Shown piece after piece: positions 34,339 through 44,472 of a stretch of DNA of 64,000 bases; the first letter of the stretch is position 1; every line of letters begins with the position of its first letter. This stretch comes from an uncultured Methanosarcinales archaeon (GTDB taxonomy: Archaea; Nanobdellota; Nanobdellia; Woesearchaeales; GW2011-AR9), in NCBI GenBank assembly GCA_964373955.1, contig CAYJXA010000002.1:5113-69112 (forward strand), given 5' to 3'. A program made the position numbers and the translations under genes. The notes beneath the pieces are model-generated. The model saw nothing but the letters and a program-made list of their open reading frames with translations. It did not search any database and was not told the origin of the DNA.

Positions 34339-34496
34339 GCCTGTCGTTTCCCCTTTAGTAATTACCCCTGTAAATCATGATGAAAATGCTTAATCTACTT
34401 CCGGCAATCTGAATATTTTGCTGCTGGTGTATCTCTCTCGCCTCTTTCTTGTTTTAATTTTTGAATTGTATATAAACATTTTGATGCCCATTTTTT

Positions 34497-34630
34497 AGGG
34501 AAGCGGAGTTAACGATGTTAACTTCCCCCGACTTTACGTCGGGGTCGAGGCATAGCCGAGAAGTTTTTCCCGCGCGCCAAATATCTCCTGAAACCGTCGA
34601 TTAATTAAGTGAGAAAATTCCGCCACAGTC
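34497..34630. repeat. island intergenic repeat module A (inverted relative to module B)
   Basis: TGAGAAAATTCCGCCAC 34610-34626 and TTTTTCCCGCGC 34564-34575 are exact reverse complements of 36102-36118 and 36157-36168. It also holds TTAACGATGTTAA 34509-34521, the helix GGGAAG/CTTCCC and the hairpin CCCCGAC-TTTAC-GTCGGGG. Confidence 0.75.
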
Positions 34631-34695
34631 GTTAAGTTGTATTACGTGCACTTTTTAACGAAAGTTTTAAATAGGGGTGTGCCCATACACTTATT

Positions 34696-35643
34696 ATGAC
34701 CTACGTTGAGACTATTAAAAGAGGAAACAAAGAGTATTACTATCTCACTAAGAATCTTAGAGTGGGGGTTAATAATTGGAAAAAGATTAGGGTATACATT
34801 GGTGATAAGAAGCCGACAAAATCAGGCATAAAAAAATATGCTGAGGAAATTGAGAAAAAGATAGAGCAAGAGGGCTTGACAAGACCTGAATATTCTTATC
34901 TTTCTGATGAAGATTCTGAAACGCTCCAAGATCTTAAAGAAAGCTTTAAAGGATGGTTAAAACAGACACCTGAAAGTTTAAAGAAAAAACTCTATGATGA
35001 TTTTGTGATTCGATTTACGTATCATTCCAACGCTATTGAGGGAAATAGGCTTACGTTACGTCAAACTGCTCTAATTCTTAAAGATAAAGTCATTCCCTCT
35101 GGAGTTAGGGCTTCTGATTATCACGAGGCTGTCAACGGGAAGGAGTGTTTAGATTATTTGAAAGAATATGCCGGGGAATTAAACAATCGCTTGCTGGAAA
35201 AAGTGAATGGAATTTTAACTAAAAATACAGGAGTTGTTTATGGGGGAAGAATTCGCTTTTTTGATGTTCAAATTGAAGGTTCTAAACACGTTCCTCCACC
35301 AAATGAAGAAGTGAAAAAGCATTTGTTAAATATGTACAAATGGTACAGTGCAAATAAACATAAATTGCATCCGTTTGAATTGGCTACTCTCATTCATGCA
35401 AGATTAACCTGGATTCATCCGTTTGAGGATGGAAATGGAAGGACTTCCCGGACAATTATGAACTGGATTTTAATGAAGAATGGTTATCCTATGTTCTTTA
35501 TCCCATTTGAAAAGCGGGAAGATTATTATATGACTTTGGAAGAAGCGGATAAAGAGAACTTTAAAGAGTATGTTGCTCGTATGCTTCGGCTGATTATTGA
35601 CCAAGTGAGAAGTTACGGGCACAAAGAGAAGAAAGAAAAGTAG
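34696..35643 (+). CDS. Fic family protein (AMPylase/Doc-like)
   Basis: Canonical Fic motif HPFEDGNGRTSR. Confidence 0.9.
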   Translation: MTYVETIKRGNKEYYYLTKNLRVGVNNWKKIRVYIGDKKPTKSGIKKYAEEIEKKIEQEGLTRPEYSYLSDEDSETLQDLKESFKGWLKQTPESLKKKLYDDFVIRFTYHSNAIEGNRLTLRQTALILKDKVIPSGVRASDYHEAVNGKECLDYLKEYAGELNNRLLEKVNGILTKNTGVVYGGRIRFFDVQIEGSKHVPPPNEEVKKHLLNMYKWYSANKHKLHPFELATLIHARLTWIHPFEDGNGRTSRTIMNWILMKNGYPMFFIPFEKREDYYMTLEEADKENFKEYVARMLRLIIDQVRSYGHKEKKEK

Positions 35644-35662
35644 TGTATGGGCACAAAATTAG

Positions 35663-36085
35663 TCAGGGCGTTATTAAGTAATCAAGCGGATTTCCATACT
35701 GTTTACCTAATTCTTCATAATATTTTCTCCATTCAGGATCAAATTGAAAATGAAGTTCAACTGGTTTTTCTTTTCTCATAGCAATGTTTGCTTCTTGCAA
35801 CGTACCATGGGATATCCCAAAAATCTAAAATCTATCAGGTATCTCAACTGTGCGAAAACAAAATTCCATTGCTTTTTCTCTTCCAATTGCTGGATTACCT
35901 TCAAATCGTTTATATGAGAAAGCTTGAAATGGATGAAAAGGAGCAAGGCCGCGCTCAGTTACATAGTCCATAATTTCTTCAATCTTATCAACAAGGCGTG
36001 AAGGTGTCGCACAATAAATTAATTCTGTCATCCTGTCGGCATATACGAAAGTTCTTATTAAAAATTGTTGTATCATAAACGTCAA
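35663..36085 (-). pseudogene. hypothetical gene interrupted by one in-frame TAG
   Basis: The ORF-track protein 35825..36085 ends ...EIPDRF at TAG 35825-35827. The same frame continues IFGISHGTLQEANIAMRKEKPVELHFQFDPEWRKYYEELGKQYGNPLDYLITP to TGA 35663-35665. Confidence 0.5.
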
Positions 36086-36099
36086 GTCTGCGTTTTGGT

Positions 36100-36275
36100 A
36101 AGTGGCGGAATTTTCTCAAGAATTATCAAGTTAATGAAAAGAGTAGTTGTGCAAAAGCGCGGGAAAAATTGCAATTAACGATGTTATATCCTCCGACCTA
36201 CGAGCGAAGCGGAGTGGGGAGGACGTAAGAGTTTTTGAGTTGCTGGTACTTCTAGGTGCTGTCGTAGTTTTTTCT
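36100..36275. repeat. island intergenic repeat module B
   Basis: GTGGCGGAATTTTCTCA 36102-36118, GCGCGGGAAAAA 36157-36168, TTAACGATGTTA 36175-36186 and AGCGGAGTGGGG 36208-36219. GAGTTTTTGAGTTGCTGG...GTAGTTTTTT 36229-36272 is homologous to 38890-38933. Confidence 0.75.
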
Positions 36276-36350
36276 TATAATTTTTAAAAAGGAGTTATCG
36301 GGGTCTTTAAATTCCAAAATTAATTTATATTAGCTAGTTATCTAGATCGT

Positions 36351-42865: not shown

Positions 42866-42948
42866 AAGAACTTAGGATTATGACTAGTTTATAAAGATTG
42901 TTTAACTTGTTTTGATGCCCCCCTATTTTTCTTTTTATTTATCCATCC

Positions 42949-43170
42949 AAAAAATTTTGGTCGAACGCAGTGAGCCGTTTAGCATCCGTTATGTCCAGTT
43001 ACTTGCTAATTGGTCTAGTTTTGTAGTCGCTAAACGAAAGTGCCAACGTCAACATTCCCAGCGTAGCCCGAAGCTTTCCCGACAGAGTGTGTTCGAGCTT
43101 TGCATGGGAGAACGAAAACGACATCGGGAAAGTCGCCAGAGGCAAATAAAAAATTACGCATAACTCCCTA
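42949..43170. repeat. island intergenic repeat module D (composite)
   Basis: 42949-43039 is roughly three-quarters identical by eye to 38491-38585 (AAAAAATTT.GGTCG.AACG.AGTG..CCGTTTAG....GTTATGT...CGCTAAACGAA). A 9-bp hairpin pairs CTTTCCCGA 43074-43082 with TCGGGAAAG 43124-43132. GGCAAATAAAAAATTACGCATAAC 43141-43164 is the reverse complement of the GTTATGCGTA...TTTTTTATTTGC block of array C. Confidence 0.75.
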
Positions 43171-43370
43171 TATCCCAACTTTGGCTGTAAATGACAAAGT
43201 TGTGGGTATAACCGGCTATTAGCCGCCCCATAAACAAACTATGCCCTTCAAGAGCCACTCCCGTGTTCTCCTTCTCATCTGTCCAGTGCCATTAGAGCTT
43301 AAAAACTCAAAATTCTGGTCTTTTATCGCTTCTGTTAATCCGCACTCCCGCACTGGACAACCTCGGCTAG

Positions 43371-43380
43371 AATATATAAA
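43371..43380 (+). promoter_or_regulatory. TATA-box-like element upstream of the class II-like tRNA gene
   Basis: AATATATAAA centred about 29 nt upstream of the tRNA 5' end at 43405. Confidence 0.45.
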
Positions 43381-43404
43381 CCACTTAGAAAAGAATACTC
43401 GTAC

Positions 43405-43582
43405 GCCAGCGTCGCCTAACTTGGTTAGGGCGGAAGCATGAAAATCAACGACGATTGATTTTCAGCTCTGAAATTAAGTAGTTTCTTAATTTCATGAGTC
43501 TTAAACACCCTTAGCCTGTCCTAAGGGATGGTAAGACAACTTCTGTCTTGCTGACTTGAGGGTTCAAATCCCTCCGCTGGCG
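43405..43582 (+). tRNA. class II-like tRNA (long variable arm, G73; Ser suspected) with an insertion of about 100 nt in the anticodon arm; anticodon not readable by eye
   Basis: GCCAGCG UC GCCU AACUUGGUUA GGGC G GAAGC ... ACUUC U-GUC-UUGCU-GAC-UU GAGGG UUCAAAU CCCUC CGCUGGC G, followed by TTTT. The insertion contains three perfect hairpins (43439-43464, 43470-43493, 43508-43527). Confidence 0.55.
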
Positions 43583-43623
43583 TTTTATAACGACCCCAAC
43601 TATTTTAACCTTTCGGAGAAAAA

Positions 43624-44472
43624 ATGAACATCACTGAACTCATAACCAAAACTGGGCTGCGACAGGGCCTGAGCAGGAATACCCTCAAAACATACTGTTA
43701 TTGCGTGGAAAGATTTTTTCGAATTTGCCGCAAAAATCCCTATGCACTCCGTAAGCAGGACCTTCTGGAGTATATGGACAAACTCATTGAACATAATGCC
43801 CCCGGAAATACTGTAAATGTGCAAATCAATGCATTAAAATTCTTTTACGAACAAGTATTGCATCGCCGACTTACAATTAATCTTCCCATCCAGAAAGTTC
43901 CAAAACGGTTGCCTTATTTTCTGCAGAAAGAACAAGTAATGCTCATGTTGCATCATATTGACAATCCCAAGCACCAGTTGATGATTGCATTATTATATGG
44001 CACTGGCATGCGGGTAAGCGAATTAACTCATCTGAGAGTGCAAGATTTTGTATTCTCTTCCAATTATGGCTGGGTAAGGCAGGGTAAAGGAAAGAAAGAC
44101 CGTTTGTTTATTATTCCTGAGAAATTAAAAGAAAAATTGCAGGAGTATATTATCAGCAACAATTTATCTGCGGAAGATTGGCTCTTCCTTGGTCGGGAGA
44201 ATAATCATTATTCCGATCAGAGTGTGCGTGAGATTCTCAAAAATGCAAAGAAAAAAGCCCGCTTGCAGCAACATGTCTACCCCCATATGCTCCGGCATTC
44301 CTTTGCTACTCACTTCATAGAGAATGGGAACTCCGTGCTTGAGCTTCAGCCCTTGCTGGGGCACAGTAAAATTGAAACAACAATGGTCTATTTGCACTGC
44401 GCCGCACCAAAATTATTGAATTTGAAAAGCCCCCTAGATTCCCTCCCCGAAACCACTCCACAATTCTTATAA
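43624..44472 (+). CDS. tyrosine recombinase, IntI/XerD-like (no IntI-specific insertion evident)
   Basis: LLYGTGMRVSEL (Arg I), HMLRHSFATH (His-x-x-Arg), LGHSKIETTMVYLH (catalytic Tyr) and the C-terminal LKSPLDSL tail. Sits 42 nt downstream of the tRNA gene. Confidence 0.85.
   Translation: MNITELITKTGLRQGLSRNTLKTYCYCVERFFRICRKNPYALRKQDLLEYMDKLIEHNAPGNTVNVQINALKFFYEQVLHRRLTINLPIQKVPKRLPYFLQKEQVMLMLHHIDNPKHQLMIALLYGTGMRVSELTHLRVQDFVFSSNYGWVRQGKGKKDRLFIIPEKLKEKLQEYIISNNLSAEDWLFLGRENNHYSDQSVREILKNAKKKARLQQHVYPHMLRHSFATHFIENGNSVLELQPLLGHSKIETTMVYLHCAAPKLLNLKSPLDSLPETTPQFL

Follow-up and report, generated by a model that had tools for sequence, protein, structure and literature searches.

An integron-like array of probable Xer-site cassettes adjoining the xerA gene of a Woesearchaeales archaeon

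Integrons are defined by the integrase IntI together with attC sites. We analysed a window of 64,000 nucleotides (positions 5,113 to 69,112 of contig CAYJXA010000002.1, from an uncultured archaeon of the Woesearchaeales; "the window" always means this whole stretch), in which an array of cassettes bounded by dif-like recombination sites adjoins the xerA gene. The array is integron-like in its layout but is not an integron, and it resembles the bacterial elements that hijack Xer recombination. To our knowledge, Xer-exploiting elements and dif modules are known from bacteria only, and in the literature searched we found neither an archaeal integrative mobile element exploiting Xer (IMEX) nor an archaeal Xer-dependent cassette. 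The analysis is comparative and draws on metagenome-assembled genomes (MAGs) and metagenome contigs, whose loci carry L numbers.

Like the cassettes described here, IMEX have no integrase of their own, carry a dif-like site, integrate at a host site and form tandem arrays with hybrid sites in direct orientation. In some of them one strand is exchanged between sites whose spacers lack homology; others recombine through single-stranded sites that fold. Two of the features by which IMEX are recognised are seen at this locus as well, namely the absence of an element-borne recombinase and integration with hybrid dif-like sites, provided that the chromosomal site N introduced below is taken as the host dif. 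Unlike IMEX, the array resides in an archaeal host with a presumed single XerA-type enzyme and no FtsK, and its units are cassettes of one to three genes and not phages or large islands. Its sites have mostly 5-nucleotide (nt) spacers, a conserved hairpin and a cassette-specific flanking stem, and the platform is linked to xerA across a clade.

The pdif sites of Acinetobacter alternate (XerC/D, then XerD/C) around each module and are found on plasmids. The modules themselves, also called dif modules, are small accessory units with toxin-antitoxin or resistance genes and 11-6-11 Xer-type sites (PMC6449649, PMC13141974); as here, they occur in different contexts, and they are thought to be shuffled by host Xer enzymes. 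In our array, however, the sites are direct, the position is chromosomal beside xerA (transketolase, Lhr and tRNA genes lie near it) and one homomeric recombinase is implied, so that plasmid modules of the Acinetobacter type with opposite orientation are not matched.

With integrons (PMC9668308) the locus shares a recombinase gene, a primary site, a cassette array and secondary sites. Further likenesses are a conserved site structure with variable sequence, complementary ends, a cargo of toxin, restriction-modification (R-M) and unknown genes, and variable content; a variable array in one orientation indeed lies next to an integrase gene. It differs in that there is neither an IntI-specific domain nor an attC (R''-L''...L'-R') hairpin, in that the integrated junctions are hybrid because the crossover splits a short palindrome, and in that the cargo occupies both strands, apparently with its own promoters. 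Archaeal integrons with a true IntI have already been reported (PMC9668308). The archaeal XerA/dif system has the same recombinase family, 11-nt arms, a spacer of about 6 nt, the TAA...TTA pattern and, in some archaea, linkage to xerA (PMC2958812, PMC8371274, PMC11840125), but dif is described as a single-copy site without cargo, whereas multiple tandem sites with mobile genes are present here.

Core sites, platform site and cassette boundaries

We propose that positions 34503-43180 probably represent a tandem array of three mobile cassettes, inserted site-specifically at a platform site (N) upstream of xerA, which would make it an archaeal counterpart of the Xer-exploiting elements. Genome comparison revealed breakpoints at the sites, a hybrid terminal site, complementary cassette ends, a platform by xerA, variable content and no recombinase in any cassette. 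The original prediction had described an island of cassettes punctuated by recombination-site repeats beside a tyrosine recombinase, which holds, and had likened the recombinase to integron integrases, which does not; its closing idea of a distinct cassette-shuffling system, as opposed to a textbook integron, is favoured by the evidence.

With limits set at the core sites (M), the cassettes extend over 34513-36178, 36179-38652 and 38653-43163 and carry, in direct order, a Fic gene with a TAG-broken gene, three unknown genes, and a type IIG R-M gene with a coiled-coil gene. On the + strand each cassette follows one plan: a spacer of 5-6 nt, a right arm TTAT..., a GC hairpin with tail, a cassette-specific inverted repeat (IRR), the cargo, the matching repeat (IRL) and a left arm. 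The 3' end thus consists of the IRL (6-7 specific bases plus an A-run) followed by the left arm ATTGnnnnTAA. Cargo genes are oriented individually and both strands are used. The elements of the array and its platform are:

34503-34528 (+): core site M1 (repeat A), GCGGAGTTAA CGATG TTAACTTCCCC; left-hand limit of the array and its first cassette (nhmmer, M model)
34526-34626 (+): 5' accessory region of cassette 1 (hairpin covariation; P' is an inverted copy of P)
34526-34544 (+): GC hairpin of cassette 1, followed by its tail
34561-34575 (+): IRR of cassette 1, AAGTTTTTCCCGCGC
34610-34626: TGAGAAAATTCCGCCAC, up to which P', the inverted copy of P, extends
36102-36194 (+): P (GTGGCGGAATTTTCTCA ... 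GCGCGGGAAAAA, IRL of cassette 1), then M2; boundary of cassettes 1 and 2
36168-36194 (+): core site M2, ATTGCAATTAA CGATG TTATATCCTCC
36195-36275 (+): 5' accessory region of cassette 2, with GC stem, AGCGGAGTGGGG and IRR
36229-36243: IRR of cassette 2, GAGTTTTTGAGTTGC, the reverse complement of GCAACTCAAAAA (38631-38642) at the 3' end of the same cassette
38491-38669 (+): 3' element C1 of cassette 2, IRL and M3; C1 resembles the start of D; boundary of cassettes 2 and 3
38631-38644 (+): IRL of cassette 2, GCAACTCAAAAATT
38642-38669 (+): core site M3, ATTGGATATAA CGGTTG TTATGCGACCC
38670-38935 (+): 5' accessory region of cassette 3 (IRR/IRL match, fold)
38666-38749: long GC stem of cassette 3
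38767-38782: IRR of cassette 3, GAGTTTTTTATTTGCC
38795-38935: C3 element, in the 5' region of cassette 3
42949-43152 (+): D-type 3' element of cassette 3, ending in the IRL
43141-43155 (+): IRL of cassette 3, GGCAAATAAAAAATT
43153-43180 (+): terminal hybrid site, with cassette left arm ATTACGCATAA, spacer CTCCCT and N right arm ATATCCCAACT (three-way alignment)
43252-43387 (+): Dt, a conserved non-coding element between N and tRNA/xerA, 67-70% identical in L081, L082 and L103
43624-44472 (+): XerA-type tyrosine recombinase, 282 aa, with the lhr helicase gene next downstream

The consensus of M, derived from 16 aligned copies, reads A-run, TTG, four variable bases, TAA, a spacer of 5-6 nt (mostly CGATG) and TTA(T/A), with a left arm of 11 nt (A-run-TTG-NNNN-TAA) and a right arm beginning TTAT. 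Most cassette sites have a 5-nt spacer, and their dyad symmetry scores range from 4 to 9 of 11; on the same measure the E. coli dif scores 6 of 11. The dif sites of Pyrococcus and E. coli were compared through their published architecture, the TAA(N)TTA pattern and, for E. coli, the sequence. As a dif-like site, the core broadly fits both the archaeal hallmark TAA(N6-8)TTA (PMC11840125) and the 11-6-11 architecture of archaeal dif (PMC2958812, PMC8371274).

A search of the window with the M model (nhmmer) matched solely at 34501, 36163 and 38638, all on the + strand, and in L082 the model found a copy on which it had not been trained, 3 kb upstream of the xerA gene of that locus. Arrays of M sites in the same orientation occur in L152/L263 (four sites), L192, L154 and L271, and the order P, then M, recurs in L103, L152, L154 and L128. 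The right arm of M is followed by a GC hairpin of 7 base pairs (bp), in six of whose seven stem pairs both sides have changed, a covariation score reached by none of 500 shuffles. A relic of a tRNA anticodon arm was considered for a hairpin and rejected by eye, as loop position 37 is not a purine.

At the right end of the array, a three-way alignment shows the window tracking L152 up to ...ATTACGCATAAC and then L082 from CATAAC-TCCCTATA... onward; L082 is the closest relative and has no island at the position of the hybrid site. The platform site N is a 28-nt site located upstream of xerA and downstream of a conserved gene for a 68-aa protein in at least 12 related lineages (L001, L081, L082, L085, L103, L269-L271 and L273-L276), for example ATTGAAGTTAA CTCCCT TTATCCTCATT in L081 and ATTGGGCATAA CTCCCT ATAAGCCCACT in L082. 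On the far side of N the gene content is different in every lineage. A model of N built from the relatives only matches the window at 43149-43184 (E 3.5e-4), and the next match is M3 (E 0.09). N reads TAA-N6-TTA in L081, L085 and L001 (dyads of 8/11 in L081 and 7/11 in L085), while the remaining sites read TAA-N6-AT[AT]A with dyads of 2-8/11. Next to N, L103/L216, L270 and L271 have arrays of core sites that share this orientation, and L082 has one such site. Cassette content differs between L082, L103/L216, L270 and L271, so that the variation between related genomes asked for by the original prediction is observed.

The exact 23-mer GGCAAATAAAAAATTACGCATAA, which covers the IRL and left arm at 43141-43163 of the window, was found at 17 loci, 16 of them in other genomes, mostly MAGs of Woesearchaeota or Nanoarchaeota. 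What follows it varies: counting the window together with the 17 loci, there are 18 spacer/right-arm sequences, and most of them have TAA-N5-7-TTA. In L286 a distant XerA-type gene (36% identity), itself followed by proteasome and aCPSF1 genes, lies 440 nt downstream of the 23-mer. Because of these joins, the hybrid array end and the conservation of N, the predicted crossover is the boundary between left arm and spacer, and the site family is, as judged from sequence, tied to xerA. The 23-mer is also present on contigs binned as Nomurabacteria (L277), Anaerolineaceae (L282) and Ignavibacteriaceae (L293), and several Woesearchaeota-like contigs carry the label "Methanosarcinales"; these bacterial and methanosarcinal labels probably reflect mis-binning, transfer between domains being the less likely alternative.

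The recombinase is, from its sequence relationships, of the XerA type and not an IntI as had been suggested. XerA_Arch (NF040815) is its best NCBIfam model (213.8 bits), the integron-integrase model TIGR02249 reaches 187.9 bits against a cut-off of 265 with a match in two stretches, and PRK15417 reaches 120.7 against 435. The protein aligns end to end with the XerA structures of Pyrococcus (4a8e, 2.8e-38) and Thermoplasma (5hxy, 4.5e-36), and the alignment with Vibrio IntI4 (VchIntIA, 2a3v) is broken: query residues 177-192 (16 aa) face IntI4 residues 182-238 (57 aa), hence the IntI-specific domain, an insertion of about 40 residues, is absent. Woesearchaeota widely possess homologues, with 50-83% identity and lengths of about 275-290 aa, and in relatives xerA and lhr form a syntenic pair whether an array is present or absent; a look-up of the exact protein returned no record. 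Together, a XerA-type recombinase and a nearby dif-like site point to a cassette system based on Xer/dif.

All six repeat blocks named in the original prediction were recovered at their positions, with no exact copy of any of them elsewhere in the 64 kb. In addition to A6TTTGG and TAACG...GTTATG, these are:

34610-34626 (-) and 36102-36118 (+): GTGGCGGAATTTTCTCA, exact copies
38767 and 38890: GAGTTTTTTATTTGC, with two-mismatch copies at 36229 and 43142 (-)
36208 and 38736: AGCGGAGTGGGG
34564 (-) and 36157 (+): GCGCGGGAAAAA

For three blocks none of 100 dinucleotide shuffles reached the observed count, and for AGCGGAGTGGGG one of 100 did. Repeat A (-) aligns with repeat B (+) over about 70 nt at 73% identity, and C1 with D over 95 nt at 72.6% (E 5e-9). 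The repeats are thus real, but the "one repeat family" resolves into a composite of distinct modules: the core site, the hairpin with its tail, the cassette-specific inverted repeats and the D-type 3' elements. Within this scheme, A6TTTGG and GCGCGGGAAAAA correspond to A-run flanks of the IRL, TAACG...GTTATG to the two arms, AGCGGAGTGGGG to the GC stem (its 3' strand), GAGTTTTTTATTTGC to an IRR and GTGGCGGAATTTTCTCA to the outer part of the long inverted repeat of the Fic cassette. The same analysis replaces five separately bounded blocks by three cassettes, since no repeat parts the R-M gene from the coiled-coil gene. A presence of repeats in both orientations is retained for the inverted repeat P of the Fic cassette only, whereas the core sites are all on the + strand, as is xerA.

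Cassette mobility and proposed mechanism

The Fic cassette is present with about 80% nucleotide identity at six or more loci. Its Fic protein is 88-90% identical in L103/L216, L154, L157/L206, L191 and L192, while in L103/L216 Xer is 52% and Lhr 61-74% identical, and therefore the cassette moves horizontally. Its homology between loci starts exactly at 34510 (TAACGATGTTA, the TAAC of the core), inside the short palindrome, and ends at 35657, with unrelated flanks; in general, homology between genomes breaks exactly at the junction of TAA and spacer. Cassette 3 is found as a unit (C3 tail, R-M gene, coiled-coil gene and start of D) at 80% identity on the independent 4.1-kb contig L294, where the R-M protein is 87% identical and has the same coiled-coil neighbour, and both ends of that contig lie inside repeats. 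The D element is 77.9% identical over 190 nt to L152:1755-1572, a stretch which likewise ends at a core site, and the non-coding stretch containing C3 (38722-38935, about 210 nt) aligns over 211 nt with L263:5196-5405 and with L152 at 90.5% identity. Scanning genomes and metagenomes with the P pattern gave mostly chance bacterial matches, which were filtered by hand; genuine copies turned up in two MAGs, one of the Nanoarchaeia (L103/L124) and L128, as well as on many metagenome contigs. In a viral collection the P 17-mer had two chance matches and Fic none, hence there is no evidence for a viral carrier.

Two further structures for the Fic cassette were rejected. An invertible segment, as the inverted P around Fic might indicate, is not evidenced because L103/L216 has the same orientation relative to xerA as the window, and a transposon with P as terminal repeats does not agree with inter-locus homology that starts at the core site, outside P'. 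Contig DATDXI010000035.1 ends (L124) in the inverted P repeat with last bases that copy the other arm; how the left copy of P really looks can be seen in L216, which comes from a different sample, and L124 reflects assembly breakage or chimerism at repeats.

The two ends of a cassette are matched to each other. In each window cassette a stretch of 12-14 nt, located 55-126 nt past the 5' site, is the reverse complement of the sequence preceding the 3' left arm (IRR/IRL pairs TTTTCCCGCGC/GCGCGGGAAAA, TTTTGAGTTGC/GCAACTCAAAA and TTTTTATTTGCC/GGCAAATAAAAA), and three cassettes of L152, one of L216 and one of L192 show the same with other sequences. In total, eight of 12 cassettes, representing six sequence types, have such complementarity over 12-14 nt, compared to one in 124 non-cognate pairs that reached 12 nt. 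The arms match likewise in cassette 2 (GGATATAA...TTATATCC) and cassette 3 (CGCATAA...TTATGCG). When the ends were joined into circle junctions, arms paired over at least 7 contiguous bp in 6/9 rebuilt cassette sites (7-8 bp in those that paired) against 1/14 integrated sites; the rows of L271 were left out of this count for their imprecise site coordinates. The dyad is best in the rebuilt cassette site and not in the chromosomal one. As single strands, the rebuilt junctions fold into a closing stem, a core hairpin and the GC hairpin (z = -5.1, -6.0 and -6.0).

From this we derive the following model. A cassette would be excised as a circle, the ends of which join into a dyad-symmetric, dif-like core flanked by a stem of 12-14 bp. 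A tyrosine recombinase would exchange strands at the boundary of left arm and spacer, either between a cassette site and N or between two sites of the array, resulting in insertion, excision or reshuffling. The catalyst is most probably the adjacent host XerA, because no cassette has its own recombinase. Partner spacers are unlike in both sequence and length, and the probable course is therefore one pair of strand exchanges that replication or repair completes. Integron attC x attI recombination is also resolved from a single strand exchange. For phage CTX-phi, one pair of strand exchanges followed by replication or repair has been described (PMC5357621). Because some archaea are reported to have xerA and dif together in one linked module (PMC5357621), N may be the chromosome's dif site. 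The closing stem and the hairpin could serve as sites for accessory factors, act as terminators or form a folded single-strand substrate.

A more far-reaching version, which we put forward tentatively, is that this DPANN clade has turned its dimer resolvase into the engine of an integron-like capture platform with an origin independent of IntI. The platform would consist of xerA and a fixed primary site. The cassette site, of about 90-160 nt, would be conserved in structure and variable in sequence, with a palindromic core, a GC hairpin and a cassette-specific closing stem, and would perhaps be used as a folded single strand in one exchange without spacer homology.

Several observations weigh against the reading as Xer-exploiting cassettes. 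The link to XerA is one that we infer from position and site architecture only, and the XerA_Arch score lies slightly below the cut-off of 220. Several arrays (L152/L263, L154, L192 and L128) are on fragments with no xerA in view. The 5-nt spacer of most cassette sites is unusual for Xer sites, and the spacers of partner sites are non-homologous. Dyad symmetry of N is weak in several lineages (2-5/11), and the left end of the array (A) is without the usual A-run flank. No IRL/IRR match was found in three cassettes of L271 and one of L154. Finally, homology also breaks sharply at a second point that is not a core site, where the conserved Fic sub-module ends on the right (...GTGTATGGGCACA); this breakpoint is common to all Fic loci, and past it the partner gene differs.

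If the proposed reading is true, the array would be the first archaeal mobile DNA that hijacks the dimer-resolution system, and would have arrived independently and convergently at what integrons achieve, the capture and stockpiling of small accessory genes. The exchange of defence and toxin genes (Fic, R-M, MNT-HEPN) between DPANN archaea with their very small genomes would be explained, and XerA, for which hardly any natural sites have been described, would gain concrete DNA substrates. A further point of contact is the proposed origin of integron integrases from Xer-like enzymes. The grammar of the sites (left arm, then spacer, right arm and hairpin, with matching end repeats) would serve as a rule for finding cassettes in metagenomes.

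Competing explanations

Of the alternatives, the one that survives best accepts the sites as real and places the enzyme elsewhere, either as a dedicated integrase or as an HUH/IS200-type enzyme acting on the hairpins, with xerA as a mere neighbour of a hot spot. We consider this unlikely, though it accounts for some facts directly: the cassettes without a recombinase, the 5-nt and heterogeneous spacers atypical for Xer, the subterminal hairpins together with strong single-stranded folding of the rebuilt junctions, the arrays in which xerA is not in view, and a DDE transposase beside one Fic cassette (L192). It does not agree with the linkage of N to xerA in 13 lineages, nor with a similar site upstream of a distant XerA-type gene in another gene context. 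The core, moreover, is built from arm, spacer and arm, as are the sites of tyrosine recombinases. Genes or domains of the HUH, TnpA or TnpB kind were not seen in any array examined, among them the island and the arrays of L152/L263, L192, L154 and L271. Within the island itself no open reading frame (ORF) has a Phage_integrase or transposase domain in Pfam, and a tblastn search with Xer matched the xerA gene alone.

It is improbable that the repeats are regulatory or insulating elements, such as bidirectional oligo-T terminators, promoters or small RNA genes, between which content differs by ordinary recombination. T-runs on both strands next to GC hairpins at each boundary, TATA-like boxes in P and upstream of A, and a C3 that is 90% conserved without an ORF would suit such a function. 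Yet it leaves unexplained the exact breakpoints at the TAA/spacer junction, the joining of one identical left arm to 18 right halves, the complementary ends kilobases apart in the same cassette and the conserved position of N by xerA. Rfam (scans of the island at gathering thresholds and at E <= 1) finds a tRNA and no other RNA family.

A true integron, with an IntI integrase, an attI site and cassettes bounded by attC, is very improbable. The layout is right for it, with a recombinase, a primary site, sites in one orientation and accessory or toxin cargo, the integron-integrase model does give 187.9 bits, and archaeal integrons exist, including in the Nanoarchaeota of GTDB (PMC9668308). Nevertheless, XerA_Arch outscores TIGR02249, the IntI-specific insertion is missing and the recombinase is syntenic with lhr in relatives with or without an array. 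A scan of 34000-43600 for attC (RYYYAAC ... GTTRRRY, 50-145 nt) returned four strict core pairs, the sole pairing one of which is inside the R-M ORF; in the intergenic repeats no R''/R' cores 50-145 nt apart fold as attC. C1, D and C3, folded on both strands as had been recommended, show no excess structure relative to shuffles (z -0.1 to 0.7), and a reading of the repeats as attC sites was rejected. The crossover is, furthermore, placed in a short palindrome and not at the end of a long hairpin, and the cargo uses both strands. It had been set out beforehand that a recombinase going with XerA and a dif site nearby would speak against an integron; the enzyme goes with XerA and a dif-like site is nearby, and therefore the integron reading fails.

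A low-GC island abutting a tRNA and then a tyrosine recombinase gene might suggest that the neighbouring integrase has placed a common genomic island in the adjacent tRNA gene, but this can hardly be entertained: the far boundary has no tRNA-derived direct repeat (outside the gene, the window matches the tRNA in chance 11-mers only), the island is located on the 5' side of the tRNA and stops at N, 225 nt short of it, L082 and L103 have N and xerA without the tRNA, and the recombinase is conserved with lhr in relatives lacking the island.

Genes of the island and its surroundings

The cargo genes and the flanking genes, apart from xerA, are:

33814-34338 (-): VKOR gene, left neighbour of the island
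34696-35643 (+): Fic/DOC-family gene, cargo of cassette 1 (Pfam Fic, 6.7e-19)
35660-36085 (-): TAG-interrupted gene of 86 + 54 codons, the variable partner in cassette 1 (translation)
36351-38483 (+): three overlapping ORFs (256, 124 and 332 aa), cargo of cassette 2 (ORF list)
39083-42115 (+): type IIG/ISP-like R-M enzyme, 1010 aa, cargo of cassette 3 (Pfam)
42155-42865 (-): coiled-coil protein, 236 aa, cargo of cassette 3 (weak coiled-coil-type Pfam matches only)
43405-43582 (+): tRNA gene of the Leu/Ser type (long variable arm), interrupted by an intron of about 103 nt (Rfam RF00005, 30.6 bits)

Profile matches bear out the earlier gene calls for VKOR, Fic, the type IIG/ISP-like enzyme and the tyrosine recombinase; translation verified the in-frame TAG at 35660-36085 (-), and Rfam the tRNA between array and recombinase. 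The GC content is 30-32% across 36-43 kb against about 41% around it, with cassettes 2 and 3 being low in GC. For the TAG-interrupted gene the DUF7768 match is weak and under the curated cut-off, and no homologue was found at the other Fic loci. The three ORFs of cassette 2 have no Pfam or NCBIfam match. The R-M enzyme matches Type_ISP_C (8.4e-74) and N6_Mtase, with Eco57I over its cut-off and MmeI_Mtase slightly under it. Its ORF of 1010 aa compares with 1024-1028 aa in the closest relatives, and a + strand ORF at 41886-42158 overlaps its 3' end; a frameshift may affect the C-terminus. An inverted repeat of 12-13 nt, GTGTGCCCATACAC (34678-34691) and GTGTATGGGCACA (35645-35657), flanks the Fic ORF on both sides, and its second copy falls on the breakpoint at the right of the Fic sub-module, a second recombination point within cassette 1.

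The C3 stretch is kept between genomes despite different flanking cargo and is also present in L285 after its site. It contains repeated GCTTTGATG(T/C)C motifs and two copies of GAGTTTTTTATTTGC, is Rfam-negative, and may be a small RNA or an accessory recombination sequence; a C/D-box small RNA, considered for its TGATG/CTGA motifs, was rejected for wrong spacing. Dt, on the platform side, has an 11-bp inverted repeat CTGTCCAGTGC ... GCACTGGACAA (43279-43289 and 43350-43360, about 60 nt apart) with one compensatory change, carries a TATA-like TATATAAA box and may be a regulatory site of the platform. The 68-aa protein (MQxEK..EQVIRTNQEILDNLCRD..YWAKYMM) is encoded at:

L082:1842-2048 (-)
L081:1992-2198 (-)
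L103:5627-5812 (+)
L085:568-771 (-)

It is 63-81% identical across lineages, has no Pfam match and is always encoded between N and xerA, divergently from xerA. This gene has been lost from the window, and its product could be an accessory factor of the system.

The tRNA gene at 43405-43582 lies between the platform site and xerA. A second intron-containing tRNA gene was found at 47433-47533 (intron of 28 nt), and both were missed by ARAGORN. A T-loop-like GGGTTCAAATCCC motif near 12045 (-) could be part of a third intron-containing or split tRNA. In the related arrays the cargo includes a nucleotidyltransferase and HEPN pair (MNT-HEPN), an ANT(2'')-like enzyme, an HD protein and AlaE exporters, at these loci:

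L271:6268-7429
L263:5656-6940
L192:2700-3110
L082:396-818

Regulators of the TrmB family recur near the sites in L082, L152, L128 and L154.

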